The translations under genes were made by a program, and so were the position numbers. Shown here in pieces: positions 927 through 40,480 of a stretch of 40,480 nt of DNA. Below the pieces are notes generated by a model. That model worked only from the letters and a program-made list of their open reading frames with translations. It was not told where the DNA came from and did not search any database. Source of the DNA: a virus (Duplodnaviria > Heunggongvirae > Uroviricota > Caudoviricetes). The stretch's first letter is position 1. Each line of letters starts with the position of its first letter. Location: positions 1-40,480 of IMG/VR virus record IMGVR_UViG_2718218098_000005. One strand, written 5' to 3'.

Positions 927-2096
927 TTAACATCCTGTTGCATACCAGTAAACCTCACCAAACCATTCATTTATGGTGCCAACGGTAAACCCGCTGTCTG
1001 TCATACTCATCACGCACGGCACGGTTGCTGATAAATCGTCCTTTACTGTCAGCTGGATATTCCACGGTCCCTGAGGAAACGGAACAGGAAAACGACACTG
1101 GTTACCGTAACGACCTGCAACGGCAAACACACCCCACTGTCTCATAATCCCTGTAGCCGTATCCCGCTCCCAGCCATTAATCCCTCCCTCGCCGGTATTA
1201 CGGTAGCGGGCATCCGACTCTGCCCTGCTGTAAGCATTATCACTGCCAGCTGGCCCACGTGGACCCGCGGGTCCCGTATCACCTCTGGGACCACGTGGCC
1301 CTGCCGGACCGGTGTCGCCTTTCAGCCCCTGTTCACCCTTCGGACCTGTGTCGCCTTTTGGTCCCCGTTCACCCTTCGGACCTGTGTCGCCTTTCGGACC
1401 AGGCTCACCCTTTGGCCCTGCGTCGCCTTTCGGCCCCTGAGGTCCTGGTACTCCCCGCTCTCCGGTATCACCTCTGGGTCCCTGTGGCCCCGCCGGACCG
1501 GTGTCCCCCCGGGGACCCTGCGGGCCGCCGGGGTCACCTTTTTCCCCTTTTTCGCCCCGCTCACCCCTGGGTCCCGGTACACCCTGTGCACCTGTCATGC
1601 CCCGCTCCCCTCTGGGGCCGGTCTCACCCCGGTCACCTTTCGGTCCTGGCTGCCCCTGCGGTCCCGTATTCCCTTTGTCCCCCTTCGGCCCCCGTGCATT
1701 TTCTGCCCGTCGGGCTGCTTCTTCCGCACGGGATTCACTCCCGCGTGCCCGTTCAAGGATTTCTGCAGCAACGGCCTCCAGCTCTGCCAGTGCTCTGGGA
1801 TATTCCGCCGCCGTTTCTTCATTCAGCAAAAACTCATTCAGCGTCCCTGCACGGGATTTTTCACTGACGGTTATCTCTCCGGCATACACCGGCGGATACC
1901 CTTCTGTCTGCAGAATGACGCTGTAATTCCCCGGCTCCACTGACATACTGTAGCGACCGGCATCACCGGGTTCACAGGAGGCCACGGTATGCACTATCAC
2001 TGTGGCACTGGTCCGTTTTGCCTTCAGCCGGATGACACATCCCGGCACCGCTTTTCCTGTACCGTCTTTCAGCACGCCTGAAATCTGTACTGCCAT
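927..2096 (-). CDS. Side tail fiber protein with prophage tail-fiber N-terminal domain and long collagen-like Gly-X-Y region
   Basis: ORF 927..2102 begins with GTG; ATG at 2096 has GGAG 5 nt upstream; ~49 consecutive G-X-Y triplets in translation. Confidence 0.8.
1247..1691. repeat. Collagen-like (Gly-X-Y)n coding repeat inside tail fiber gene
   Basis: Translation [26 protein letters not shown]... through [11 protein letters not shown]; repetitive GGN-CCN-rich DNA. Confidence 0.85.
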
Positions 2097-2107
2097 ACTC
2101 ACTCCAC

Positions 2108-2827: not shown

Positions 2828-5800
2828 TCAGCTGATACTGATGCCTGCGGTGGCTTTCTTCATCACCACAACCAGCAAATCACTGATACTTGCTGTGGGA
2901 TACCAGTCATTTACCAGCCATGCTGACACCGAAAACTCCAGCGTCATGTGACCGTGACCGGCAGGCATATCAATAACGCCACTGTAAATCAGCGTATTAT
3001 CCAGCGCGGTACGGTTATAAATTTCAGCACCGTTTTTCCGCACTATCAGACGGCATGAGGAGTAAATATCAGTATGCTCTCTCTCATGTTTAGCGCCGCT
3101 GAATGCCACCGCCGGAATAACAATCTGCCGGTCAAACGGCTGATTGTCATAAACCCTGACGGTAATGGTCCCTGATGGCCACCGTTCCGGTGCACGGGAG
3201 TCCCGGGGGAAAGCTTTGCCCACGGTTTTAACGAGATCACCTTCAATCTGGTTCGCGGACAGTTTTCCCAGAACCCGACAGTTCTCGTTAATCGTGACGT
3301 TGTTGAGCGTCCCGGCGTTCGCATTCACGTTACCGCTGATATCCGCATTTTTCGCCGTCAGCCGCCCATCCGGTGTCAGGGAAAATGCCGGAGGATGACC
3401 ACCACTGGTAATGGTGGGGGCCGTCAGGCGCTTCAGGAACACGTCGTTCATGAATATCTGGTTGCCCTGCGCCACAAACATCGGCGTTTCATTCCCGTTT
3501 GCCGGGTCAATAAACGCGATACGGTTAGCGGCAACCAGAAACTGACTCACCGTGTCCTCCATGCTGAGGCCAATACCCGCGACATAATGTCTGCCGTCTC
3601 TGGTCTGCTCAATTTTGACGCCCCACATGACATTCCATTTATCACTGGCGTCCTTCCACGCTTTCGAAAACTCCTCCAGTCTGCTGGCGTTATCCTCTGT
3701 CAGCTCGACTTTTTCCAGCAGCTCCTTGCCGAGATGGGATTCGGTTATCAGGCCTTTGAAAAAATCCAGGTAACCTTCGGCATCATCGCTCGCCCGACCG
3801 ACAGCCTCCACGAATGTCGATTTGCCGACGGTGTTCACACTGCGGATATAAAAGTAATAATCACGACCCGGTTTGATATTGATACTGGCGGCTATCCAGT
3901 ACAGCGCCGTACCAAGATAGCGGGCTGTGGTTTCAACCTGCCTGATATCCGCAATCCGTTTTTCCGAGAACCAGAACTCAAACTGTACCGTCGGATCATA
4001 AACCGCAAGATGCGGCGTGGCGGTTATCTGAAAATAGCCCGGCGTCAGCTCAATCCTCGACGGTGCTGCCGGTGCGGCAATCCGGAACGATACCGACGCC
4101 GGATCGCCCCGCTGCCCCCACGCATTTACCGCCCGGACCGTCAGCGTGTAACGCCCCAGCGCCAGCTGCCTGAAGCGGTATGTGGTTTCCGTCGTCCTGG
4201 CTGTACTGACCAGCCGCTCACTGCCGTCGTCCGCTGTTACGGTCAGGCGAAGCATAAAGCTCACCCCCTTCACCACCTTCGGTGTGTCCCAGCGCGCCAG
4301 CACCTGATATTCCCCGCTGTCTGCAGTGACTTCTGCGGTCAGGTGCTGCACCGCTGGCGGCGTGACACCATTCACCGTGCCGCTCTGGTCGCCGTCAAAG
4401 TGCGCCCCGTTATCCACGATGGCCTCTTTTTCCGGTACATGCTGCACGGCGGTGATGGCATACGTGCCGTCGTCGTTCTCACGGATACTCACGCAGCGGA
4501 ACAGGCGCTGGCGCAGCGTCGGCAGCTTCAGCCCCCACACGCTGTATTCAGCAACGCCGTCAGGAACCCGGCTCACTTTCACCTTCACGCCGTCGGTGAC
4601 GGACTGAACCTCCACGCTGACCGGATTGCCATTTCCGTCAACCAGGCTTATCAGCGTGGTGCCGGAGGATGGCAGCGTGATTTCACGGTCGAGCGTCAGC
4701 GTCCGGGTCTGGCTGTTCACCGCCAGCACGCGACCACCGGTGCTGATACCGGCATAGTCATCATCGCAGATTTCAATGACATCGCCCGGTACATGGCGAA
4801 GCCCTTCGGCACCCACGCTGAAGTCCACGGTCTGCGTTTCCAGCAGCTCCGTTTTAATCAGCCACAGCCCGGCGCGGTGCGCCTGCCCCCGGCTGGTACA
4901 GCCAAAGGCATCCATCTTCGTGACGTTACGACCGTAACGGGCAATGGCCTGCGTGTCCTCCACAAGCTCTGTCGCCGTCTGCCAGCCGTTGTCCGGGTCA
5001 ATCCAGTTCACCTCAACGGCATTATGGCGGTCCTTCAGGGCGCTGAAGCTGTAGCGGAACGGCGCGCCATCCTCCGGCATCACCACATTACTGCGGTTAT
5101 AGGTCCACACCTTATCCGACGGCCGGTCCTGCACGAACGTCAGCGTCTGCCCGTTCCATACCGGCATACAGCGCATCGCCGAGCAGAAATCACTGAGCAC
5201 ATCCCACGCCTTACGCTGCGTGGTCAGCCACGCATTACAGGTGATGCGCGGCTCCGTGCCGCCAGAGCCGTCCGGCACTGACTGGTCGCAGTACTGGCCG
5301 ATGGCGTACAGCGCCCATTTGTCCACGTCCGCCGCGCCAAGACGTTTCCCCATACCGTAGCGCGGGTGGGTCAGCATATCCCACAGACACCAGGCCGGGT
5401 TGTCACTGTATGCCGGTTTGAGGGTGCCGTCCCAGATACCGCTGTATTGCCGTGTCTGCGGGTTATAGTTCGACGGCACCTGCAGAATACGCCCACGGAA
5501 ATGGTAAGTGCGGCTCACCTGCTGGCTGCCGAACTGCTCCGAATCCACCTGCACGCCGACCAGTGCCGTGTTCGGGTGGCATTGTTTCACATCGATGATT
5601 TCGGTGTATGACGACCAGAGCGTTTTGTTCTGCAGCTGGTCTGTGGTGCTGTCCGGCGTCAGCCTGCGCATCCGGATATTAAACGGGCGCGGCGGCAGGT
5701 TACCCACCACCACCGAGGCCAGATACTGTGAGGTGGTTTTTCCCTTAATGGTGATGTCTTTTTCCGTCACCCAGCCACCGTTACGTTGTATCTGAACCAG

Positions 5801-8593: not shown

Positions 8594-11500
8594 TGTACAA
8601 TCCTCCATCCCGACGCGATGACTGCATAATTGACACAACCCTGCTGTCGATCAGATCCACCAGTCCCCTGGCTGAGCGCGCATCTATCTCGCCATTGCTC
8701 CCTTGATTCTGAATGCTGATGTGATACACGGGAGAATAAACAAATCCACCGCCACCATTCACATTTCCAATGGCCCTGACCCCAAGAGAGCCGTCCGCTG
8801 CCCGTGTCAGTGGCATGATTGCTTCAGGCCCGGCCTCGCCCATCAACCCGGCACCTTTCGCAAAAGCAAAATACGTCGGTGTATCCACAATAGTGTTACT
8901 GTAAGCACTCAGATTTGCCGATGTGTAAACACCACCTTTTGCGTTTGCCACTGCCCCCGAAATCCATCCGCCGACCGTACCAAGCCACCCTCCGGCACCG
9001 GAGAGTGATTTCAGTCCGTTAACAATGGCTGCATTCATCAGAATTTTTGAAACTTCCCGGAGAACTGAACTCCCCCAGTTCCTCCAGTCCACAACATTCC
9101 CGGCCAGTGCATCGGAAATATTTGATACCAGCCCGTCCATCGTGGAAACGACAGCATCTGCCGCCTGTGAAGCATAATCGGTGGCACTGTCTGCCCAGTT
9201 GGTCAGTCCCTCCTGGAGTCCGGCATTCCAGTTATTACGTAAAGCATCGGCCTTTGCATAATAATCCTGCTGATCGCTGAGACGCTCTTCCAGATATTTT
9301 TTATTCAGTTCTTTCTCCTGTTTCCACAGGGCTTCTTCAATTTCTCCGGCCTGATACTGTCTCAGCAGCTCGTTATTTTTCTGCTCAAACGCCTGCCGGA
9401 TACTCCACATTTCCTGGAGTCGTTCACGCATCCGTGAGCCTTCACCATATCCCAGCAACTGCGCGTAGTCAGATGCCCGGGCACTGGCATTACTGTCTGC
9501 CAGACTGCTCTCATACGCAGCAAGCTGCTCACGAATCTTTTTCTGGTCGATGAGTGCTGCATTCTGCAAAAGCGTTTTTTTCTGCGCTTCTGACAGGGTT
9601 GATAATTCGCCCTGACTGACCTGATATTTCATCTTAGCCAGTTCAGTATTCTGCCCTGCCAGTGCTATTTGTTCTTTTTGCTGTTTAATCAGCCGTTTAT
9701 AAATATCTTCTGTTTTTTCCGCTTCGGTCTTTTTATGCGCTTTTGGTTTATTTGCCTGGTTATTTCGCCAGGCATCCAGTGAGTTATTGATATAATTCTG
9801 TCTGGCTGTCTGATACGCCTCTCCCACAAAGCCGAGATCATCCGCAGCATAACCCAGGCGGGCACGCTCACGGGCTTCCCCCTTCAGGCGGGACAGAGCC
9901 AGTTCGCGCTCGCTGTTATTCAGTGCGGTCTGCTGTTTATCATCCAGGGTTGCCTGTGGTAGCCGTAACGGTACATTCACCAGCCCCTGTCGCTGCTGAA
10001 GTAATTCATTACCGAGGCCGAGAAGGCGATTAAACTCGGTATGCTGCCCATTCATGATCAACAGGGACTGATACGCTTTGTTTTGTTCCGCTGCCTGTTG
10101 ACGGATCAACGTCACCCGTCGCTCCTCCAGCCCGGCAAGCACATCCTGAATGGATTGCGCTTTGCCCTGCATTTGTGTGAGACGGGACTGTTCAACTGCC
10201 AGTTGATTTGTTGCTTCTGCAAGCCCTTCTGTGACAGTTTTTACCGACGTCATGTGGTTAATCATAAAACCGTTATCGGTTGTCCAGCCCGGGTTTGCCA
10301 GCACATACTGATAGCCAGCAATTTTTTCCTGTAAGGATTTAATCTTACTTTTCTGCTCGTCAATTAACCTGTTTTGCTCATCAAGTGCCTGCCGCGTCTT
10401 TTCCTCATTATCTGACGCTTCAGGAAGCGACATTGCCGACGTTTTCTGGCGAATTTCGTCGATTGTTGCGGCATACTGGCGTGCAGATTCTCTGGCCTGC
10501 TCCTGATTCTGATACATCGTGTACCAGGCCGCGGCCCCCAGCATGACAAGCCCCGGCACCCCACCAACCAGTCCCAGTGCTCCACTTAACAGACGACTTC
10601 CCACTGACGTGACAGTATTCAGCGTTGTCTGTGCTGCTGTTCTGGCCGCAATATTACGGGTAAGTGATGCCTGGGCAGCAGCCAGTTTCGCTTCTGCGGC
10701 TGCCTGCCTTTCGGTACCGCGAGCAGCAACAACCGCCTGTTGCGCACGATAAACCGCCGCACGCGCCCTGGCTGTTGCTATCTGTATCCCCCGGAGCTGC
10801 GCTTCCGCAAGAGCCACTTCGTTTCTGGCTGCAGTAATTAATCCGGCAGTTGCAGATCCAGCAGAAGACGCCATATTGCCAAAATATCGGGCTACCCCGA
10901 CGGCAACCAGAGCACCGGCAGCGGTTGCCACAGTGTCAATATTGCCTGCAATACCATTCAGCACACCGGAGAGCGTCTTCGTCACTCCGCTTGCCTCGTT
11001 CGCACCACCAACCCAGGCCATAAAGGCGTTTTCAACTTTGGTTACAGAGGATGAAACCGTATCAGGCATTGCCGCATATTCATCACGTAATGCCCCAAGC
11101 TGACTAATCAGTGCAGGAACAACCTTATCGGCGGTCAACTTTCCGTTATCCGCCATGGCCTTCAGATCCTTACGGGCAACCCCCATTCCCGCAGCCAGCG
11201 CACGAATAACACGATCGCCGTTCTCATTCACCGAGTTAAACTCTTCACCGCGCAGCACTCCCTGCGCCAGTGCCTGACTGAACTGCGTGATCACCGAACT
11301 GGCTTCTGCTGTACTGGCACCGGATAATTTCAGGCCCGTGGAGATCGCCTCGGTGACTTTCAGTACCTCCTCAGAACTGTAACCATACTCCCGCATGGAA
11401 GCTGCAGAACGGGCAAAAAGGCTGGCGTTATCAGAAAACGCCGTCCCCGTTCTCTGGCTGATCGCCATTAATTCACGCTGTGATGCCTGAAAATCATCAC

Positions 11501-23990: not shown

Positions 23991-24065
<75 letters not shown>

Positions 24066-24068
24066 ATA

Positions 24069-24144
<76 letters not shown>

Positions 24145-24146
24145 AC

Positions 24147-24223
24147 TGGACCGCCACCGGGGACTCGAACCTCGCACACTCAACTTAAAGTGTTGACGCT
24201 CTTTCCTGATGAACTAGTAGCGG
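24147..24223 (-). tRNA. tRNA-like, probable anticodon TTT (Lys) with C33
   Basis: Acceptor CCGCTAC/GTGGCGG, 5-bp anticodon stem TCAAC/GTTGA, loop ACTTTAA, T-loop TTCGAGT, CCA encoded. Confidence 0.5.
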
Positions 24224-24224
24224 T

Positions 24225-24300
24225 TGGTGGCCCTGGCTGGATTTGAACCAGCGACCTGGCGATTATGAGTCGCTCGCTCTCACCACTGAGCTAAAGGGCC
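24225..24300 (-). tRNA. tRNA-Ile2-like (anticodon CAT; ileX/ileZ type)
   Basis: Strong similarity by recollection to E. coli ileX; anticodon loop CTCATAA; CCA encoded. Confidence 0.8.
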
Positions 24301-26907: not shown

Positions 26908-27168
26908 TCACTCATCTTCAAAAGCAGAAAAACCAGCCTTAATCCCAGCTTCTTTCAGAGACGGCAACGATGTGACAAATTCATTTGCACGCAAAATAAA
27001 ACCATCCGTCACAAGCCCATCCACCAAATGAATTAACGCAGCTCCACTCTTCCTTTGTTGAGACTGTAAACATTTAATACGGCAGAGGCTGACAATAGCA
27101 CCATTCTCAACGTGCACAGCATAGAGGCCATTTTCACTAAAAATTTCACGCAATTTTTCGATTTTCAT
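26908..27168 (-). CDS. rem: Rem-like protein (86 aa)
   Basis: Synteny (between ydfU and hokD as in Qin); RBS GGAAGGA; sequence identity not verified. Confidence 0.5.
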   Translation of the reverse strand: MKIEKLREIFSENGLYAVHVENGAIVSLCRIKCLQSQQRKSGAALIHLVDGLVTDGFILRANEFVTSLPSLKEAGIKAGFSAFEDE

Positions 27169-27388: not shown

Positions 27389-27544
27389 TTACTCCTCAGG
27401 TTCGTAAGCTGTGAAGACAGCGACCTCCGTCTGGCCGGTTCGGATTCGTACCTCGCAGAGGTCTTTCCTCGTTACCAGTGCTGTCACTATGACGGTTAAA
27501 CAGATGACGATCAGGGCGATTAACATCGCCTTTTGCTGCTTCAT
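27389..27544 (-). CDS. hokD: Hok/Gef family type I toxin (HokD/RelF-like, 51 aa)
   Basis: MKQQKAMLIALIVICLTVIVTALVTRKDLCEVRIRTGQTEVAVFTAYEPEE matches HokD by recollection; single TM + conserved Cys. Confidence 0.85.
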   Translation of the reverse strand: MKQQKAMLIALIVICLTVIVTALVTRKDLCEVRIRTGQTEVAVFTAYEPEE

Positions 27545-27732
27545 AGCCTGCTTCTCCTTGACCTCTCGGTCCGTAAGAGGCAATCTATATGTGACGAGCA
27601 TATAGGGGCCTCACTTCGATTTATAGTCGGGTGGGGCTTTTATCTATCTGCCTTTGGTGTTCATGCCTGAGGCAGATAGCCTCAAGCACCCGCAGCAATT
27701 CTACTTAACTCTCCTTTTCCCGCAAACCGTTT

Positions 27733-31051: not shown

Positions 31052-31480
31052 TCACAGCATCACCTCCTGAAAACTCCCCTGATAAAACGCCAGCACGCGC
31101 TGCATAACTTCGCTCTTCCGGCACTCGCTACAGATTATGTTCTGACGCCTGTCGTAGCGGCGTATCTCTCCGTCTGGTAACTTTCGAATCAGCGTCTGGT
31201 CAGTTGTTTTCTCCGGTGTCTTACGCCATTCGCGATACGTCTGCTCTGACGCAAAAACACCGTATTTACCGGACATGTATAAATCGCCACAAGCCAGCAC
31301 ATCCACAAGGCAGCGTCGGACCGAATGCCAGCCAGCCCCAGTCGCTCTCTCCAGCTGCGACATCGTCATGCGTTCATTTTTGCGCACCAGAACGATGATT
31401 CGAGTCTTCAGCTCCTCCCGTTGTTCGGGTGTGTATACTTTTGCCACAAGCCCTCCTGAAAAATCACCTTCACAATTCAT
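31052..31480 (-). CDS. Hypothetical protein (142 aa), possible winged-helix regulator
   Basis: ATGA overlap with P-like gene stop; internal HTH-like segment MSQLERATGAGWHSVRRCLVDV. Confidence 0.55.
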   Translation of the reverse strand: MNCEGDFSGGLVAKVYTPEQREELKTRIIVLVRKNERMTMSQLERATGAGWHSVRRCLVDVLACGDLYMSGKYGVFASEQTYREWRKTPEKTTDQTLIRKLPDGEIRRYDRRQNIICSECRKSEVMQRVLAFYQGSFQEVML

Positions 31481-32142
31481 ACAAAACCAGCCGCTTTCCG
31501 GCGTTCATACTCCTGTTTCAGCAACTCAATTGGTGTTGGCCCCGACGGGCGTTTTGGTGCTGCCAGTTGCCGCCGTACGGGCGGAACGCTGAGGCCGTTA
31601 CCAACATGCTTTGCCCATTTTGTAAGCTGCCGTTCCGCAAGTCGTTTTAACTCCCCCTCGGTCATCTGGCGCTCAATCCCCTTTGAACGCATCTCGAGGC
31701 AAATGTGATACAGCACAGGCTGAGACCACGGGTACTTATCACTTCCGTCATATCGCCAGGACTCATTGCGCCAGCGGCGGTACTCCTCCATCACAGCATC
31801 CACCGTCAGACCGAATGGATTGGCTCCGCTTTCCGAAATCAGTGCCACAAACTCAGCCAGGTCCGGAGGCCATGTTTCACCCGCCCGGCAGCGGTCCATG
31901 CACTGGCGGCAGACCTGTCGGATTTGCTGCTCAGTCATCGCGCCAATCTGTGCAATCCAGAGCTTCGAAGGTGCGGCCCCGTTCTTCTGGGTCCAGCGGT
32001 TCGAATAAACCTCCCCCATGAGTTCCCACAGCTTCCAGACCGTTTCCGTCGCTGATAAATCCGTTTTCACGTTCCCACTGCTCACGTGCTGCCCGAATTT
32101 CCTGAACTGCCCGTGATGCGGTGCCACCTGGTGCTGCTGCAT
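31477..32142 (-). CDS. Replication protein P-like (helicase loader)
   Basis: Central/C-terminal similarity to lambda P by recollection (..TEQQIRQ.., ..YPW..); ATG 32142 with AGGGGGT 5 nt upstream. Confidence 0.65.
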   Translation of the reverse strand: MQQHQVAPHHGQFRKFGQHVSSGNVKTDLSATETVWKLWELMGEVYSNRWTQKNGAAPSKLWIAQIGAMTEQQIRQVCRQCMDRCRAGETWPPDLAEFVALISESGANPFGLTVDAVMEEYRRWRNESWRYDGSDKYPWSQPVLYHICLEMRSKGIERQMTEGELKRLAERQLTKWAKHVGNGLSVPPVRRQLAAPKRPSGPTPIELLKQEYERRKAAGFV

Positions 32143-32971: not shown

Positions 32972-33494
32972 ACGAACCCCTGGCAGACATTTGTTTATCT
33001 GCAAAGTAATATTGATATTGCTGACGATACGCATGCTTGAAAGCAATAGCTTTTTCTATAAGCTCGTCAGTCTCACGTTCCACAACAGATGGATCCGCAA
33101 AAAGCAGCCCGGACTCCACCACATCGCCATATTCTTTGTTTAACCCGGCGATCATGTACGTAATGCTTTTTCCGTCAGTAATTTCACAATACAATCTGAA
33201 ATCGCTGATCCGGATAGCCTCCATAATTGCCGGAATCAGCGCCGTGAATTTTTCCCGCTTATCCCTGGTGTCGATAGCTTTCCAGCGTTCGAATATCTTC
33301 ACCCTGTTAACGCCCAGCGCCCGTTGATCAACCTCGCCATCATTAAACGTGACGCGTTGAACATCGATGTTCGGGCGTTCTTTCAGAGCCCAGAATGCTT
33401 CCGTGATTAATATCGTCGCCTGCTCCTGTGTCATTCCTGGTCGGCATACCCAGGCATCCAGAGCCTCACAAACCTGTTCAGGGATGATTTTCAT
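32943..33494 (-). CDS. YdaT-like regulatory protein (cII-position analogue)
   Basis: 183 aa directly downstream of Cro-like dicC with 17-nt overlap; assignment by position. Confidence 0.45.
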   Translation of the reverse strand: MKIIPEQVCEALDAWVCRPGMTQEQATILITEAFWALKERPNIDVQRVTFNDGEVDQRALGVNRVKIFERWKAIDTRDKREKFTALIPAIMEAIRISDFRLYCEITDGKSITYMIAGLNKEYGDVVESGLLFADPSVVERETDELIEKAIAFKHAYRQQYQYYFADKQMSARGSYEYRCTTMG

Positions 33495-33705
33495 TGTTCA
33501 ACCGCCCCGCCCGCTTTGCCTTACGATATTCGTCATAAACTTTGGGGTCGTACTGAAGTTCCCCACCGGATGCCTCTTGCAGGCGCATCGCGCGACCTTC
33601 AGGAACCAGTTCCCCCCATTGAGAAACAGCAGATGGATCAACACCAGCAGCTTTCGCTACTTTGGCTTTCGTCCCATAAAAATTAATTACGTCTGATTTA
33701 AACAT
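33478..33705 (-). CDS. dicC: DicC/Cro-like small HTH regulator (75 aa)
   Basis: ATG 33705 with GGAGGGG upstream; ..LVPEGRAMRLQEASGGELQYDPKVY..; divergent from dicA. Confidence 0.75.
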   Translation of the reverse strand: MFKSDVINFYGTKAKVAKAAGVDPSAVSQWGELVPEGRAMRLQEASGGELQYDPKVYDEYRKAKRAGRLNNENHP

Positions 33706-33782: not shown

Positions 33783-34190
33783 ATGAACGAGAAAACTTTA
33801 GGTCAACGAATTAGAGAAAGACGCAAACAGGTTGGTTTAAGTCAAAACGATTTAAGCAAAGCCGCTGGCGTATCTGGCTCATCAATTTCACTATGGGAAA
33901 GCGACCATACAGCCCCGCGCGGGCAAAATTTGCATCGCCTAGCTGAGGTATTGCAATGTTCACCAACTTGGATACTGTTTGGTGACGAGGATAAAACACC
34001 AGATCCACCAGTTGCACTCAACAGCGCCTTAGACTTATCGGAAGATGAGTTGGAGATGTTGCGATTGTATCGCGCACTTCCAAAATCAGAGCAGCAAGCA
34101 CAAATCAGCGAACTCCGTGCCCGCGTTGAGAATTTTAATCGCCTATTCACCGAGCTACTAGAAGCTCGCAAACGTAACAAACATCAGTAA
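33783..34190 (+). CDS. dicA: DicA-like HTH (XRE family) repressor, 135 aa
   Basis: N-terminal XRE HTH (LGQRIRERRKQVGLSQNDLSKAAGVS..); ..LQCSPTWILFGDEDK.. matches DicA by recollection. Confidence 0.85.
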   Translation: MNEKTLGQRIRERRKQVGLSQNDLSKAAGVSGSSISLWESDHTAPRGQNLHRLAEVLQCSPTWILFGDEDKTPDPPVALNSALDLSEDELEMLRLYRALPKSEQQAQISELRARVENFNRLFTELLEARKRNKHQ

Positions 34191-34251
34191 CCCCCTTCAC
34201 AAATTTTAAAGCCTTACATTTCAATGTATTGGCTTTATTTTGCATTAAATA

Positions 34252-34301
34252 TTGAGTTTTCTCATTAAAAACGCTTGACCAACATTCATGAGAAAACTAA
34301 A
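34252..34301 (+). promoter_or_regulatory. Second operator-like site overlapping a candidate rightward promoter downstream of dicA
   Basis: TTGAGTTTTCTCA (34252..34264) and inverted copy GAGAAAACT (34290..34298) flank TTGACC-17 nt-TAAATT. Confidence 0.4.
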
Positions 34302-34383
34302 TTACCACCCATCAAGACACCGCACGGTGTTCTCAGCAAACAGTTCCGCTACCCGGCGTTAAGGGGAAACAGAGGATTTCTCA

Positions 34384-34740
34384 GTGGGCGAACTCAAACA
34401 TCAGAATGGAAGGTATCCTGGGATCAGCAAAGAAACAGCAATGGCGCTTTATATTGATATCAGCGCCATTGCCGGACAGGTAAGAATGATCAGAGCGGTA
34501 ACTAAACGGTATGCGCCTTTACTTCAGAAAGTCTCTGGTGAGTGCGCCGAAGATATCGTCAACGATTTCGTCATCGAATTGCGAGGACTCATCTTCAGTT
34601 ACAAGGTGACCACAGTTTTTGCAGATGGCTCCCGCGAAACTGTCAGAGCCCTGCGGTTTAAAGGATGTGTCAAAGACTTCGCCACCACATTCTGGGCAAG
34701 AAAACTTGATTGTATTCATAACCAATTTCCTCTCGAGTAA
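34384..34740 (+). CDS. Alternative candidate ORF (118 aa, GTG start) on operon strand
   Basis: GAGGA 7 nt upstream of GTG 34384; co-directional with dicA operon; no domain recognised. Confidence 0.3.
   Translation: MGELKHQNGRYPGISKETAMALYIDISAIAGQVRMIRAVTKRYAPLLQKVSGECAEDIVNDFVIELRGLIFSYKVTTVFADGSRETVRALRFKGCVKDFATTFWARKLDCIHNQFPLE
34519..34719 (-). CDS. Candidate C4 zinc-ribbon protein (66 aa); mutually exclusive with plus-strand ORF 34384..34740
   Basis: CPECGG...CKNCG motifs; GAGAGGAAA 6 nt upstream of ATG 34719; antisense to dicA operon direction. Confidence 0.4.
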   Translation of the reverse strand: MNTIKFSCPECGGEVFDTSFKPQGSDSFAGAICKNCGHLVTEDESSQFDDEIVDDIFGALTRDFLK

Positions 34741-34811
34741 CAGACCTCTCAGAGGATACCACCTCGCCTGACGTGGTTAAAAGCAGGCAACGCTAACCAC
34801 GAGGAGCCGAC

Positions 34812-35030
34812 ATGCAGAAACGAGAACCCGTCATCATCGCGCCAGACTATACCGATGATGAACTTTATGAGTGGATGCGCCAGAAAATTAATGCAGCGCA
34901 GGATCTGAAATGGGCCAATGAAGCCAGGGCTAAGCAGGCTGAAAATCTGTCCGCTCTGGAGCAGGATATCACCAATCTGGAAAAAGCAGCGGCATTAAGC
35001 ATTGCCAGAATGATTACATACCCACGTTAA
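34812..35030 (+). CDS. YdfC-like small protein (72 aa)
   Basis: GAGGAG 5 nt upstream of ATG; size and position match ydfC of the dicA-dicF-dicB operon; sequence identity unverified. Confidence 0.6.
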   Translation: MQKREPVIIAPDYTDDELYEWMRQKINAAQDLKWANEARAKQAENLSALEQDITNLEKAAALSIARMITYPR

Positions 35031-35052
35031 TAGCTAACCAACGAGGCTAATA

Positions 35053-35460
35053 ATGGAATTTAAAGATTTACCAAAAGAAATCCAGACAATTGCTGCAACG
35101 GCTCTCGGTGATAGTCTGGTGAAAATTGACCCGGCATACACCAAAAAAGAAACCATCGATAATATGGTTCGTAATGTGCGCAATGCTTTTTCTGGGCTAT
35201 ATGGTCCTGATAATCAAAAGCAGGAAAGCGATGTTAATAAACGGGTAATTTCTGTTTGCGTGAATGGCCATGTTCTTTCATCAATCAAAACAGAAACAGC
35301 GACAGTCTTCGATTGCCTTTGCATTGTACAGAGCCTTGTTGATGCCCTGTTTCGTTCAGTGAATTTAGAAAATGATGCAAATCTGCGAGGGCGCACAATA
35401 GCACATCCATATGCACATACTTTAGGCTCTGTGGATATCAAAGATCCCACAAATCTTTAA
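35053..35460 (+). CDS. Hypothetical protein (135 aa)
   Basis: GAGG 6 nt upstream of ATG; no domain recognised. Confidence 0.6.
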   Translation: MEFKDLPKEIQTIAATALGDSLVKIDPAYTKKETIDNMVRNVRNAFSGLYGPDNQKQESDVNKRVISVCVNGHVLSSIKTETATVFDCLCIVQSLVDALFRSVNLENDANLRGRTIAHPYAHTLGSVDIKDPTNL

Positions 35461-35671
35461 TGAAATAGTTAACGCGAATTGTACTTGCTCTTTCAGTTGC
35501 TTTCAGAATACGCGTTGAAACTGCTGGCGGTAATTTGGTATTCCATTTATTAAAATCATGCCCGGGAAAGTACTCTTCGAAAATACTTTTAACTGCAGAC
35601 TCGCCTATTGAAATGCTGCTTACCATGCGATTTTGATAAAGGCATTTAGCAATAAGAGTTGATTTTAACAT
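35438..35671 (-). CDS. Hypothetical protein (77 aa), convergent with and overlapping 3' end of 35053..35460
   Basis: ATG 35671 with AGGAGGG upstream; 23-nt 3' overlap with plus-strand gene. Confidence 0.4.
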   Translation of the reverse strand: MLKSTLIAKCLYQNRMVSSISIGESAVKSIFEEYFPGHDFNKWNTKLPPAVSTRILKATERASTIRVNYFIKDLWDL

Positions 35672-36005
35672 TCACCCTCCTGAGGGTTGGTAATTAAGGA
35701 GTTCTCCACGGGTGAGGTGGAGTGCGTGCGCCGGACACGGGTGAACATCCGGCACAGACAGTTTACTGAAAGGATATTTCCCTGAAAAGTCAGACCATAA
35801 CGCGAAAGCGCACGGCGAGGTAGCTGGTTCATAGATAGCCTGTCGTTAAATTTTCGTCGACCGTGCGCTTCCGGTTGTGGCAATCCGCGAAATGGCGCGG
35901 CGGTAAGTATGGCGGGGTTATTCCTTCCCCCGTTGAGGACACCGGGTTGTCAGGTTGACCATACGCTTAAGTGACAACCCCGCTGCAACGCCCTCTGTTA
36001 TCAAT

Positions 36006-36062
36006 TTTCTGGTGACGTTTGGCGGTATCAGTTTTACTCCGTGACTGCTCTGCCGCCCTTTT
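36006..36062 (+). ncRNA. dicF: DicF small RNA (ftsZ-targeting sRNA)
   Basis: TTTCTGGTGACGTTTGGCGGTATCAGTTTTACTCCGTGACTGCTCTGCCGCCCTTTTT matches E. coli DicF by recollection incl. terminator hairpin; located just upstream of dicB. Confidence 0.85.
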
Positions 36063-36232
36063 TAAAGTGAATTTTGTGATGCGGTGAATGCGGCTAAGCG
36101 CACGCGGAACAGTTAAAACCAAAAACAGTGTTATGGGTGGATTCTCTGTATCCGGCGTTAATTGTTAACTGGTTAACGTCACCTGGAGGCACCAGGCACT
36201 GCATCACAAAATTCATTGTTGAGGACGCGATA

Positions 36233-36421
36233 ATGGAAACGTTATTACCAAACGTTAATACGTCTGAAGGTTGTTTTGAAATTGGTGTCACTATCAGTAA
36301 CCCTGTATTTACTGAAGATGCCATTAACAAGAGAAAACAAGAACGGGAGCTATTAAATAAAATATGCATTGTTTCAATGCTGGCTCGTTTACGTCTGATG
36401 CCAAAAGGATGTGCACAATGA
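36233..36421 (+). CDS. dicB: DicB cell-division inhibitor (62 aa)
   Basis: METLLPNVNTSEGCFEIGVTISNPVFTEDAINKRKQERELLNKICIVSMLARLRLMPKGCAQ matches DicB by recollection; ORF-track N-terminal extension rejected. Confidence 0.9.
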   Translation: METLLPNVNTSEGCFEIGVTISNPVFTEDAINKRKQERELLNKICIVSMLARLRLMPKGCAQ

Positions 36422-36609
36422 ATTCAGCATTTGCGCTTGTTCTGACAGTTTTTCTTGTTTCCGGAGAACCAGTTGATATTGCAGTCAGTGTTCACAGGAC
36501 AATGCAGGAGTGTATGACTGCAGCAACCGAACAGAAAATTCCCGGTAACTGTTACCCGGTCGATAAAGTTATTAACCAGGATAATATCGAAATCCCGGCA
36601 GGTCTTTAA
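36418..36609 (+). CDS. ydfD: YdfD-like lysis protein (63 aa)
   Basis: MNSAFALVLTVFLVSGEP.. TM N-terminus; ATGA overlap with dicB stop; synteny with Qin. Confidence 0.75.
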   Translation: MNSAFALVLTVFLVSGEPVDIAVSVHRTMQECMTAATEQKIPGNCYPVDKVINQDNIEIPAGL

Positions 36610-36702
36610 AACAGTTCCGTAATAAATATCCGGTTTCATTCTTATATGCCAGCAATGGCAGGGATTTGTTCATCCTTAAATCTGTCATGAGGTTAAAACA
36701 AA

Positions 36703-39174
36703 ATGAGTAAAGTCTTTATTTGCGCCGCTATTCCTGACGAACTGGCAACAAGGGAAGAAGGCGCTGTGGCTGTAGCCACAGCCATTGAAGCTGGCGACGA
36801 ACGCCGTGCTCGAGCAAAATTTCACTGGCAGTTCCTGGAACATTATCCGGCTGCTCAGGACTGCGCTTATAAATTTATTGTCTGCGAGGATAAACCCGGT
36901 ATACCCCGCCCTGCCCTCGATTCCTGGGATACTGAATATATGCAGGAAAACCGCTGGGATGAGGCGTCTGCTTCCTTTGTCCCGGTCGAGACTGAATCCG
37001 ATCCGATGAACGTCACTTTTGACAAGCTGGCCCCTGAAGTACAGAACGCTGTCATGGTTAAGTTCGACACATGTGAAAACATCACTGTTGATATGGTGAT
37101 TAGCGCACAGGAATTGTTGCAGGAAGACATGGCAACATTCGACGGCCATATCGTTGAAGCGTTGATGAAAATGCCAGAAGTTAACGCCATGTATCCGGAG
37201 CTTAAGCTGCATGCCATCGGGTGGGTTAAGCATAAATGTAAGCCTGGTGCCAAATGGCCCGAAATTCAGGCAGAGATGCGCATCTGGAAAAAACGTCGCG
37301 AAGGTGAACGCAAGGAAACCGGAAAATACACGTCTGTTGTTGATCTCGCCCGCGCCAGAGCCAATCAACAGCACACTGAAAATTCAACAGGAAAAATCAC
37401 CCCGGTCATTGCTGCCATTCATCGCGAATACAAGCAGACATGGAAAACACTGGATGACGAACTGGCCTACGCTCTCTGGCCTGGTGATGTGGATGCCGGA
37501 AACATTGACGGCAGCATCCATCGCTGGGCAAAAAATGAAGTTATCGACAACGACCGCGAAGACTGGAAGCGTATCTCGGCATCAATGCGCAAACAGCCTG
37601 ATGCCATTCGCTACGACCGCCAGACTATTTTTGGCCTTGTTCGTGAACGTCCGATCGACATTCACAAAGACCCTGTGGCACTGAACAAATACATTACTGA
37701 ATACCTGACTACAAAGGGCGTGTTTGAAGATGAAGGAAGAAATCAGAGCGCGACTGATACTCTCTCGTCGCCAGTACCAGAAACTGATGCAGTGGAAACG
37801 GCAATTCCGGACAACGAAAAAACCGAATGCAAAGTGGAAGTCGAACCATCTGTAGAGCGTGAGGGGCCGTTCTACTTCCTCTTCACCGACAAGGATGGCG
37901 AAAAATACGGTCGCGCAAACAAACTTTCTGGTCTGGATAAGGCACTGGCTGCCGGGGCTACTGAAATCACGAAAGAAGAATATTTCGCCCGCAAAAACGG
38001 TACATACTCAGGTTCACAACAAAATACTGGTGCATCTGACACGACCGCACAACCAGGGCCGGTAAAAGTTACCGCTGACGAAGTAAACAAAATTATGCAG
38101 GCAGCCAATATCAGCCAGCCTGACGCCGATGAACTGCTTGCAGTATCACGTGGTGAATTTGTTGCAGGGATTAGCGATCCGAATGATCCGAAATGGGTAA
38201 AGGGGATTGAAACCCGCGATTCTGTGAATCAGAACCAGCAAAAAACGGAACAGAACGACCAGAAAGCGGAACAAAACAGCCCAAATGCGTTACAAAACGA
38301 GCCAGAAACGAAACAACCTGAGCCAGTAGCGCAACAGGAACCGGAAAAAGTCTGCACCGCCTGCGGTCAGAGCGGTGGCGGCAACTGCCCTGATTGTGGT
38401 GCGGTGATGGGCGACGCAACATACCAGGAAACATTCGATGAAGAGAATCAGGTTGAAGTTCAGAAAAATGATCCGGAGGAAATGGAAGACGCTGAACATC
38501 CACACAAGGAGAATGCTGGCAGCGCTCAGGACCACGCCAGCGATAATGAAACTGGCGAGACGGCAGATCCCTTAATTGCGGTGAACGGTCATCACGTTAT
38601 CACATCCACCAGCAGAGTGTGGTACCACCTGATGATCGACCTTGAAACCATGGGGAAAAATCCCGATGCTCCGATTATCTCAATAGGTGCAATATTTTTC
38701 GATCCACAAACCGGAGATATGGGGCCGGAATTTAGTAAGACTATCGATCTGGAAACTGCTGGCGGAGTCATTGATCGTGACACCATTAAATGGTGGCTTA
38801 AGCAATCACGCGAGGCGCAATCTGCCATTATGACCGATGAAATCCCGCTAGATGATGCACTGTTACAATTGCGGGAATTTATCGCCGAAAACTCCGGTGA
38901 ATTTTTTGTTCAGGTCTGGGGAAATGGAGCCAACTTCGACAACACGATTTTGCGCCGTTCGTATGAACGGCAGGGGATCCCCTGCCCGTGGCGTTACTAC
39001 AACGATCGCGATGTACGCACAATCGTTGAGCTGGGGAAAGCCATAGACTTCGATGCCAGAACGGCTATTCCATTCGAAGGTGAGCGCCATAATGCACTTG
39101 ATGACGCCCGTTACCAGGCAAAATACGTTTCAGCAATCTGGCAAAAACTGATCCCGAATCCGGTTGATTTTTAA
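36703..39174 (+). CDS. Large exonuclease-family protein (823 aa): long N-terminal region, Q/E-rich linker, C4 zinc ribbon, C-terminal DEDDh 3'-5' exonuclease domain
   Basis: Exo motifs MIDLET (Exo I), NGANFDNTIL (Exo II), HNALDDARY (Exo III); CTACGQSGGGNCPDCG zinc ribbon; low-complexity NQNQQKTEQNDQKAEQN linker. Confidence 0.75.
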   Translation: MSKVFICAAIPDELATREEGAVAVATAIEAGDERRARAKFHWQFLEHYPAAQDCAYKFIVCEDKPGIPRPALDSWDTEYMQENRWDEASASFVPVETESDPMNVTFDKLAPEVQNAVMVKFDTCENITVDMVISAQELLQEDMATFDGHIVEALMKMPEVNAMYPELKLHAIGWVKHKCKPGAKWPEIQAEMRIWKKRREGERKETGKYTSVVDLARARANQQHTENSTGKITPVIAAIHREYKQTWKTLDDELAYALWPGDVDAGNIDGSIHRWAKNEVIDNDREDWKRISASMRKQPDAIRYDRQTIFGLVRERPIDIHKDPVALNKYITEYLTTKGVFEDEGRNQSATDTLSSPVPETDAVETAIPDNEKTECKVEVEPSVEREGPFYFLFTDKDGEKYGRANKLSGLDKALAAGATEITKEEYFARKNGTYSGSQQNTGASDTTAQPGPVKVTADEVNKIMQAANISQPDADELLAVSRGEFVAGISDPNDPKWVKGIETRDSVNQNQQKTEQNDQKAEQNSPNALQNEPETKQPEPVAQQEPEKVCTACGQSGGGNCPDCGAVMGDATYQETFDEENQVEVQKNDPEEMEDAEHPHKENAGSAQDHASDNETGETADPLIAVNGHHVITSTSRVWYHLMIDLETMGKNPDAPIISIGAIFFDPQTGDMGPEFSKTIDLETAGGVIDRDTIKWWLKQSREAQSAIMTDEIPLDDALLQLREFIAENSGEFFVQVWGNGANFDNTILRRSYERQGIPCPWRYYNDRDVRTIVELGKAIDFDARTAIPFEGERHNALDDARYQAKYVSAIWQKLIPNPVDF

Positions 39175-39240: not shown

Positions 39241-39492
39241 ATGTACGAATTAACTCTATCGCCAGCAGAGATTCAAGAGATCACAAGATACGAGCGATAC
39301 ACAAGACAGCAACACCAGCTAAGGCTGCACGGCATCCCGTTTGTAATCGGACCTAAAAACGAACCAATAGTTCTTCGCCGGGATGTTCCGCACGGGCTGA
39401 CAGCAATGTCGAAAGTATCTGAACTGGTTTCTGCTGAACCCGATTTTGAGGCGCTGAACAATGGGAAGACCAAGAAAAAACAAAAAAGATAA
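39241..39492 (+). CDS. xis: Putative excisionase-like protein (83 aa)
   Basis: Small basic ORF immediately upstream of and overlapping int; assignment by position. Confidence 0.45.
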   Translation: MYELTLSPAEIQEITRYERYTRQQHQLRLHGIPFVIGPKNEPIVLRRDVPHGLTAMSKVSELVSAEPDFEALNNGKTKKKQKR

Positions 39493-40480
39493 TGCACTAC
39501 CACCGCGTGTTAGATCGAATGGTTACAGTTACGTATGGAAACCCGAAGGAAGCACAAGAACTATAGGGCTCGGAAGAGTGCGGGAAACCAGCGTAGCTAA
39601 AGTCTGGCAAAATTATGAGCTGGAAAAAGCAAAACTCCACGACATAATGACCGTCGCTAAATTATGGCACATGTTTATGGACTCCCCTGCATTTACAGAA
39701 CTGGCCCCCCGAACCCAAAAAGATTATCGGCAACATCAAAGGGCATTGTTGGCAGTATTCGGAAAAGTGCTTGCTGATAATGTAAAAATTGAACAGGTAA
39801 GAATTTTCATGGATAAGCGGGGACTTGAGAGCAAGACCCAGGCAAATCATGAACTGGCAAGTCTGAGCCGTGTATACGGATGGGGGTATGAGCGTGGGTA
39901 TGTGAAAAATAATCCATGCAGAGGAGTCAGAAAATTCACACTTAAAGCTCGTACTGTTTACATCACCGATGAACAGTATGCTGCAATATATGCGGAGGCA
40001 ATTCCACAGTTACGTATTGCAATGGAGATATCCTATCTTTGTGCGGCAAGGCTCGGTGATGTACTCGAGCTGAAATGGCAGGATATTATGGATAAAGGGA
40101 TTTACATTGAGCAAAACAAGACCGGCACTAAACAAATCAAGGAATGGTCTCCGCGATTACGTACGGCGATCCAGTTAGCCCGAAATGTATCTTCCGGCAC
40201 ATGCGAATATGTGATCAACACAACCAAAGGCGGGAAGGTTATAGCCAAGACGCTGAACAACTGGTGGAATCAGGCTAAACGTGCAGCCGAGCAAAAAGCC
40301 GGCGTTCCGTTTGGGTGCAACTTCCATGACATAAAAGCCAAAGGGATTTCAGATTACGAAGGTAGCAGCCGTGACAAACAAATTTTCAGTGGACACAAAA
40401 CAGAAAATCAGGTGTTGATTTACGATCGTAAAACCAAAATCACCCCAACACTGGATTTGCCGCTTGTGGTCAGTAAGTAG
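39461..40480 (+). CDS. int: Tyrosine integrase (lambda Int family), 339 aa
   Basis: N-terminus MGRPRKNKKDNALPPRVRSNGYSY parallels lambda Int arm-binding domain; C-terminal catalytic-domain-length body; stop at window end. Confidence 0.9.
   Translation: MGRPRKNKKDNALPPRVRSNGYSYVWKPEGSTRTIGLGRVRETSVAKVWQNYELEKAKLHDIMTVAKLWHMFMDSPAFTELAPRTQKDYRQHQRALLAVFGKVLADNVKIEQVRIFMDKRGLESKTQANHELASLSRVYGWGYERGYVKNNPCRGVRKFTLKARTVYITDEQYAAIYAEAIPQLRIAMEISYLCAARLGDVLELKWQDIMDKGIYIEQNKTGTKQIKEWSPRLRTAIQLARNVSSGTCEYVINTTKGGKVIAKTLNNWWNQAKRAAEQKAGVPFGCNFHDIKAKGISDYEGSSRDKQIFSGHKTENQVLIYDRKTKITPTLDLPLVVSK

Follow-up and report, generated by a model that had tools for sequence, protein, structure and literature searches.

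The 40,480-nt stretch of viral DNA analyzed here (positions 1 to 40,480 of IMG/VR record IMGVR_UViG_2718218098_000005, referred to below as the window) very probably carries an undamaged, classical dicBF early-left (PL-type) segment in its natural place within a lambdoid temperate phage that resembles Qin and is integrated at a tRNA-Ser gene. What the DNA itself establishes is the sequence identity, the order and spacing of the genes, the conservation of the promoter and leader, and a complete-looking set of prophage genes flanked by two att sites.

The DicF-DicB-YdfD module

The initial annotation had described a DicF-identical sRNA, DicB, and a YdfD-like lysis protein arranged as in the Qin prophage of Escherichia coli K-12, and the alignments bore this out. 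The interval 36006-36609 runs exactly from the 5′ end of DicF to the stop codon of ydfD, and all three elements lie where they had been placed. The DicF sRNA (36006-36058, plus strand) was identical to MG1655 dicF at 53 of 53 nucleotides, including the target-pairing sequence, and the Rfam covariance model RF00039 matched the plus strand at 36007-36058 over model positions 1-52 of 52 (76.7 bits, against a gathering score of 48; E value, 2.3e-15). It ends in a terminator-like 3′ hairpin with a GGCGG...CCGCC stem in the Rfam alignment, followed by a T-run (TTTTT at 36059-36063). The plus-strand spacer between DicF and dicB (36059-36232) is 174 nt long, which is equal to the Qin length in the alignment. 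The Rfam family STnc100 matched over 36056-36265 below its threshold (34.7 bits; gathering score, 47), and a permissive Rfam scan of positions 34200-36700 gave no further RNA elements beyond this subthreshold match.

The dicB gene (36233-36421, plus strand) encodes 62 aa, and both DicB profiles covered residues 1 to 62 of the 62, with scores of 137.3 bits for Pfam DicB (PF05358; cutoff, 27 bits) and 133.7 bits for NCBIfam NF049927 (cutoff, 100 bits). The protein is identical to K-12 DicB at 61 of 62 residues, the sole change being K2E; the same E2 variant also occurs in 5 of the best 80 of at least 589 DicB-encoding IMG/VR loci. The ydfD gene (36418-36609, plus strand) encodes 63 aa, matches Pfam DUF1482 (PF07358) with 92 bits (cutoff, 25), and differs from its K-12 counterpart by two substitutions, V6A and H53N (61 of 63 residues identical). 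Both the N and the C terminus, which are each needed for lysis by YdfD (PMC8835842), are intact and unchanged. The two genes overlap by 4 nt (ATGA), as they do in Qin.

Positions 35685-37469 of the window, in which the module lies, are 98.0% identical to Qin, and the alignment to K-12, which had been proposed as a check, revealed no frameshift, stop codon, or truncation that would inactivate dicF, dicB, or ydfD. Nothing in the sequence speaks against the identity of the module. Because the effectors are identical or nearly identical to those of K-12, the same activities would be expected here. DicF represses the ftsZ, xylR, and pykA mRNAs (PMC5069750). DicB targets MinC to the septum via ZipA, inhibits ManYZ, and blocks ManYZ-dependent entry of lambda DNA (PMC6832061). 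YdfD binds IspG, which it is reported to inhibit, and lyses dividing cells, and this lysis is counteracted by DicB (PMC8835842).

The early-left operon and its regulators

In K-12, the operon promoter dicBp is repressed by DicA, and the antirepressor Rem relieves this repression (PMC10448788). Putative counterparts of these components lie in the window. A short repressor of the DicA type (33783-34190, plus strand) is, like DicA, 135 aa long and shares 56% identity with it over 128 aa; since the identity is no higher than this, its immunity specificity is probably different from that of DicA. The only Pfam families matched by the repressor were of the helix-turn-helix type (HTH_3 and relatives), and no peptidase family was found among its Pfam matches, i.e., it has no autocleavage domain. 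A Cro/DicC-like regulator (33478-33705, minus strand; Pfam P22_Cro, 64 bits) faces the repressor gene, and the segment 33215-33615, which overlaps the 3′ part of the Cro/DicC-like gene, shares 88% identity with the ydfX-dicC region of Qin. Farther away, at 26908-27168 on the minus strand, lies a gene for an 86-aa protein with 69% identity to Qin Rem (E value, 1e-37), in the same position as in Qin, between a DUF968 gene and hokD. By analogy with K-12 (PMC10448788), this Rem-like protein is the likely trigger for derepression of the DicA-type repressor. No LexA box was found near or upstream of the Rem-like gene; the pattern CTGT-N8-ACAG matched twice in the window, both times elsewhere, and two or more matches also occurred in 7 of 100 shuffled sequences. 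Since the Rem-like gene has no LexA box nearby and the repressor has no cleavage domain, SOS induction would not be predicted for this prophage.

A consensus scan placed a putative dicBp-like (PL-like) promoter at 34275-34303 on the plus strand (TTGACC-17-TAAATT), and its −35 hexamer and flanks can be aligned with the sequence between dicA and ydfA in K-12, where dicBp lies. It is followed by a 60-nt operon 5′ leader (34310-34369, plus strand) that is 95% identical to the Qin sequence just upstream of ydfA (L001 8438-8498), despite the different genes that come after it. This leader is a conceivable antitermination site of the nut or put type and is offered as a lead only; no N-like antiterminator that could carry transcription past the DicF hairpin was identified. 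After the leader, the ydfA/ydfB interval of Qin is replaced by unrelated sequence, and only ydfC is present (34812-35030, plus strand); it has 95% DNA identity to Qin ydfC and is named YdfC by PGAP in strains M6 and M19. Strains differ in the genes that they carry upstream of dicF (PMC5069750), so the missing ydfA and ydfB do not disqualify the segment as a Qin-type dicBF operon.

Between ydfC and the DicF leader, the alignment showed a 634-bp insertion relative to Qin (35051-35684), at a point where Qin positions 9062 and 9063 are contiguous. The insert contains an open reading frame (ORF) of 135 aa on the plus strand (35053-35460) and a convergent ORF of 77 aa on the minus strand (35438-35671), which belong to the PHROG families of unknown function phrog_1363 and phrog_10348, respectively. 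The possibility that the insert is a rare or novel element was rejected, given these family assignments for both ORFs, its presence at ≥80% coverage in 646 of 5,426 E. coli genomes, and its occurrence in phage Evi. A second minus-strand ORF within the operon lies at 34519-34725. The replacement of ydfA/ydfB and the insert with its convergent ORF could dampen read-through from the promoter, which makes expression uncertain.

The noncoding precursor leader of DicF (35685-36005, plus strand) is approximately 98% identical to both Qin and phage Tritos. Its predicted fold was only marginally better than that of shuffled sequence (z-score, −1.95). In K-12, this leader holds the RNase III site that gives rise to a 190-nt species and the RNase E site that defines the 5′ end of the 53-nt DicF (PMC10448788), and the same processing may take place at 35685-36005.

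Downstream of the module, a plus-strand gene at 36703-39174 encodes an 823-aa protein with a C-terminal Rv2179c-like 3′-5′ exonuclease domain (Pfam PF16473, 227 bits) and a full-length match to phrog_2082. The Qin pseudogene ydfE, truncated by IS2, can be aligned with the 5′ portion of the gene as far as window position 37469; it is the 5′ stump of the exonuclease gene that is intact here. The exonuclease gene is followed by a DUF4224 excisionase-like (xis) gene (39241-39492, plus strand; Pfam DUF4224) just upstream of the gene for a 339-aa tyrosine integrase (39461-40480, plus strand; Pfam Phage_integrase), the stop codon of which is the end of the window.

The surrounding prophage and its relatives

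The mouse E. coli strains M6, M9, M11, M15, and M19 each carry a chromosomal segment that matches the window at 100% identity. In M6, the copy is the reverse complement of positions 854591-895070 of NZ_CP010186.1 and belongs to a 41.8-kb element at a tRNA-Ser gene, between yccA and hyaA. A 60-nt repeat of the 3′ end of the tRNA-Ser gene (31 + 28 nt with 1 mismatch) stands at both ends of the element in M6, outside the window, with the attL copy approximately 140 bp past the integrase gene; the window leaves out both att copies and about 1 kb of the element at the tail-fiber end.

The gene content of the prophage was read from the PGAP annotation of the identical M6 copy. The packaging and head genes comprised those for the small and large terminase subunits, portal, an HK97-type protease, the major capsid protein, and connectors, and the tail genes comprised those for the tube, chaperones, the tape measure, homologs of M, L, K, I, and J, Lom, a 389-aa tail fiber, and two assembly proteins; PHROG and Pfam matches backed the major tail protein and the tail fiber. 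Lysis and late control were represented by two holins, an M15 endolysin, and antiterminator Q, and the early genes by RusA, DUF968, O-like, P-like, Cro-like, HTH repressor, DUF4224 excisionase-like, and tyrosine integrase genes. The only pseudogenes flagged were a partial ead/Ea22-like gene and one frameshifted hypothetical gene; none was flagged among the late genes. The full-length morphogenesis genes noted in the initial annotation form a full head and tail set. No spanin family was recognized among the small ORFs downstream of the holin and endolysin genes. The O-like replication protein is intact, and the P-like loader as annotated has 153 aa, is without about 73 N-terminal profile positions, and has a doubtful start; a 221-aa ORF extends its Pfam match upstream to profile positions 27-161 of 162. 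The term “apparently intact” is reasonable as a statement on gene content, which marks the prophage as potentially productive.

The likeness to Qin extends well beyond the three effectors, the spacer length, the dicB/ydfD overlap, and the DicF leader of ~98% identity. It includes ydfC, the promoter −35 hexamer, the operon 5′ leader, a DicA-type repressor, a Cro/DicC-like gene, and a Rem-like gene with hokD nearby, as well as the order dicF-dicB-ydfD-ydfE with K-12 spacing, in which the ydfE homolog is full length in the window. In contrast to Qin, the window has no ydfA or ydfB, contains the 634-bp insert, and encodes a repressor only 56% identical to DicA; it has a complete 823-aa exonuclease gene where Qin has the IS2-truncated ydfE, and it has xis, int, replication, lysis, and all morphogenesis genes, most of which Qin is without. 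The initial annotation had presented the module as “retained” in an intact prophage, and here the direction has to be reversed: it is the complete phage that is ancestral, and Qin represents a decayed version of such a phage.

The module is already on record in functional phage genomes. In Tritos (OV696610), which is prophage 3 of the adherent-invasive strain (AIEC) LF82, a 1-kb block is 98.8% identical to the window, the order of ydfC, DicF, dicB, ydfD, the 823-aa exonuclease gene, xis, and int is the same, and the deposited record annotates DicF, DicB, and YdfD. Tritos differs from the window in having its own CI-type repressor, replication module, lysis cassette, head genes, integrase, and integration site, in having no 634-bp insert, and in one substitution at the 3′ end of DicF. 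Tritos is a lambda-like siphovirus whose virions have been quantified and imaged by transmission electron microscopy and which yielded a plaque on MG1655 hsdR−; the paper describing it makes no mention of DicB or DicF (PMC9928086). The arrangement in the window, common and annotated in a plaque-forming phage, is ordinary.

A second relative, phage Evi (LR597642), shares the head-tail module at ~96% identity as well as the early-left operon, in which the 634-bp insert, the spacer, and the exonuclease gene are all present; its DicF has one mismatch to that of the window. In Evi, however, a 73-aa protein annotated as Kil replaces dicB-ydfD in the same slot. The breakpoints of this swap are clean, at about window positions 36213 and 36634, and the spacer is conserved up to about 36213. 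The RefSeq label for an identical cassette is Rac prophage Kil protein, a division inhibitor; KilR acts on FtsZ. The Evi-type variant was found in 55 complete E. coli genomes. Since Evi carries a KilR-like protein in place of dicB-ydfD, the comparison suggests that this position is an interchangeable division-inhibitor slot of the early-left operon. In lambda, Kil is a small division inhibitor that is expressed on derepression and causes transient filamentation. Its gene occupies the corresponding early-left (PL) slot, with the immunity region on one side and the recombination and int genes on the other, and by position the DicB/DicF/YdfD cassette would sit where lambda carries kil. The sequences are unrelated, and lambda has neither an sRNA partner nor a YdfD-like protein.

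The block is widespread. The 1-kb block around the module had a match in 4,750 of 5,426 complete E. coli genomes, at a median of two places per genome, and at ≥80% coverage it was present in 3,817 of the 5,426. At least 589 IMG/VR viral contigs encode DicB, many of them 40 to 50 kb long. In the best 80 of these loci, ydfD came after dicB in all 80, DicF was found at the same spacing in 66, and the exonuclease gene was full length in 55; about ten of the 80 carried dicB-ydfD with no DicF upstream, and the cassette is therefore mosaic. Among deposited phage genomes, 20 encode DicB and 8 carry the whole block; the block is present in Tritos, Ev081, and several others. The framing of this prophage as an unusual case and a special context in which to study the module finds no support in these figures. 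They also bear on a 2016 paper, which reported no DicB or DicF match in ~2,000 phage genomes and described the operon as conserved in defective prophages (PMC5069750); the premise that no phage has DicB or DicF is contradicted by present databases.

Proposed role of the module in a complete phage

For how the module is expressed and processed, what it does to its targets, and whether it acts in the lytic cycle or in exclusion, the account given here draws on the K-12 work. There, some transcription ends at the DicF hairpin and some reads on into dicB-ydfD (PMC10448788). By this model, the DicA-type repressor at 33783-34190 would shut the promoter at approximately 34275-34303 in the lysogen. 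Displacement of the repressor, probably by the Rem-like antirepressor encoded at 26908-27168, would allow a polycistronic transcript to run through ydfC and the DicF leader, from which RNase III and RNase E would release DicF, and read-through of the DicF hairpin would supply dicB, ydfD, the 823-aa exonuclease, xis, and int. DicF would then pair with ftsZ and other mRNAs, DicB would bring MinC to the septum via ZipA and inhibit ManYZ, and YdfD would inhibit IspG. Together, these products would halt host division in early lytic development, much as lambda Kil or Rac KilR would, and leaky expression could, as a side effect, exclude ManYZ-dependent phages. A transient division block during early lytic growth would be the most likely role of the cassette in a complete phage. 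The fuller reading, in which the module is a working lytic host-takeover unit in an exchangeable slot that in lysogens could also exclude ManYZ-dependent lambdoid phages, is put forward tentatively, as somewhat short of an even chance.

Among the alternatives, the one with the strongest claim holds that the prophage is grounded and that the module is kept, as has been proposed for Qin, since its occasional expression helps the host through phage exclusion or stress filamentation, and not for any use that the phage makes of it. Such a state would fit a repressor with no autocleavage domain, a Rem-like gene with no LexA box nearby, the lack of a recognized spanin, the ambiguous start of the P-like loader, and the two accessory pseudogenes. 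The five carriers, moreover, are sibling mouse isolates with an identical copy and thus give no sign that the element has moved, and the published view is that dicBF is conserved in defective prophages (PMC5069750). Against it stand the condition of the element itself, which has kept both att repeats, int, the xis-like gene, Q, the holins, the endolysin, and the whole complement of head and tail genes intact, and its kin among deposited phages: a closely related head-tail module occurs in Evi and 640R1, and the same early-left block occurs in Tritos, Ev081, and 640R1, of which Tritos forms plaques. Today's databases, furthermore, contradict the 2016 statement on phages without DicB and DicF, and a grounded prophage is considered unlikely, at about one chance in four.

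A second alternative, that the ydfA/ydfB replacement and the insert with its convergent gene have cut the module off from the immunity promoter and left DicF, DicB, and YdfD as silent cargo, finds its support in the differences from Qin upstream of the DicF leader, including the minus-strand ORFs at 34519-34725 and 35438-35671. However, the same upstream layout, insert included, occurs in 646 genomes and is shared by the deposited phage Evi, where the exonuclease, xis, and int genes hold the same operon position and would presumably need to be transcribed through the insert. Conservation extends to the promoter −35 hexamer, the 5′ leader, and, at ~98%, the DicF leader in which the K-12 RNase III and RNase E cuts lie, and silent cargo is accordingly rated as improbable. 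Finally, decayed remnants or chance similarity can be dismissed with near certainty, given E values of 1e-15 to 1e-40, two full-length reading frames, and near-identity to characterized K-12 genes.

The host-takeover reading, if true, would overturn the conclusion drawn in 2016 that dicBF persists in defective prophages alone, where it is maintained because it benefits the host. A full-text literature search found no study of what DicB or DicF does while a phage goes through a productive cycle, and this role is apparently unstudied, which leaves a real but modest question. The plaque-forming Tritos is a better system for addressing it than an uncharacterized prophage of a mouse strain. Taken alone, the present case carries little weight, with three genes, an order, and regulators that are textbook K-12 biology. 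Published discussion of dicBF still treats the operon as a trait of cryptic prophages; that it is a module of living phages is shown by Tritos, Ev081, and Evi along with complete prophages like the one described here.

Late genes, tRNA genes and the hok/sok locus

The tail-fibre gene (927-2102, minus strand), whose product combines a collagen-like repeat with a C-terminal gp53-like domain, was a single ORF both in the window and in the mouse E. coli strain M6, one of five strains (M6, M9, M11, M15, and M19) with a prophage 100% identical to the window. In M19, a 1-nt indel divided the gene into two CDS, probably reflecting an assembly difference among sibling strains. Beyond the window in M6, about 1 kb of AT-rich DNA (positions 42572-43623 of the M6 locus) separated the last tail gene from the tRNA-Ser attachment site, and no convincing ORF was found in this interval.

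Between Q and the lysis genes, ARAGORN predicted a tightly spaced cluster of four minus-strand tRNA genes (23991-24300), namely, Gly-UCC, Thr-UGU, Lys-UUU, and a Met/Ile2 tRNA with a CAU anticodon. Three of the four were recovered by Rfam, and two, named Ile and Gly, were present in the PGAP annotation. A hok/sok type I toxin-antitoxin locus (27389-27691, minus strand) comprised a sok match at 27542-27691 (Rfam, 107 bits) and hokD at 27389-27544, as annotated in the identical M6 copy. The position of hokD relative to its neighbours was the same as in the cryptic K-12 prophage Qin; HokD has been reported to be the most highly expressed moron of the plaque-forming phage Tritos.

Replication genes and the early-left operon

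In the P-like helicase loader region (31477-32142, minus strand), the start of the annotated 153-aa protein fell within the Pfam P domain, more of which was recovered by a 221-aa ORF that shares about 210 nt with the end of the O-like gene. The 482-aa phrog_15931 looks like an O-P fusion with the arrangement of the O-like gene and 221-aa ORF here.

The predicted PL-like promoter was followed by a 60-nt plus-strand leader (34310-34369) that was 95% conserved with Qin, despite different downstream genes, and whose 3' part was also kept in phage Evi. It contained two short hairpins, ACACCG..CGGTGT and CCC..GGG, and may act as a regulatory or antitermination element. Downstream, the place of ydfA/ydfB in Qin was occupied by two overlapping ORFs on opposite strands (34384-34740): a plus-strand ORF of 118 aa, matching phrog_21318 (E 1e-65) and chosen in the Evi annotation, and a minus-strand Zn-ribbon ORF of 68 aa (34519-34725), matching NCBIfam ECs_2282_CxxC (57 bits) and chosen by PGAP.

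On the far side of the module, an 823-aa exonuclease gene (36703-39174, plus strand) encoded a C-terminal Rv2179c-like 3'-5' exonuclease domain; the ydfE pseudogene of K-12 corresponds to its 5' end, cut off by IS2.

Exchange and uncoupling of the dicB-ydfD cassette

A 73-aa KilR-like gene stood in for dicB-ydfD (exchanged interval, 36213-36634) in phage Evi (positions 4480-4880 of its locus) and in 55 E. coli genomes, bordered by the same flanks. The in-frame stretch 5' of this gene was labelled partial DicB by PGAP, which looks like an annotation artefact. An STnc100 match spanned the DicF-dicB spacer (36056-36265, plus strand; 34.7 bits, E 2.9e-5), scoring below the Rfam gathering score of 47.

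Among the best 80 of at least 589 DicB-encoding IMG/VR contigs, nine loci (L012, L014, L020, L021, L033, L067, L071, L077, and L078) carried dicB-ydfD with unrelated sequence, instead of DicF, directly upstream; DicF can therefore be separated from the two protein genes.
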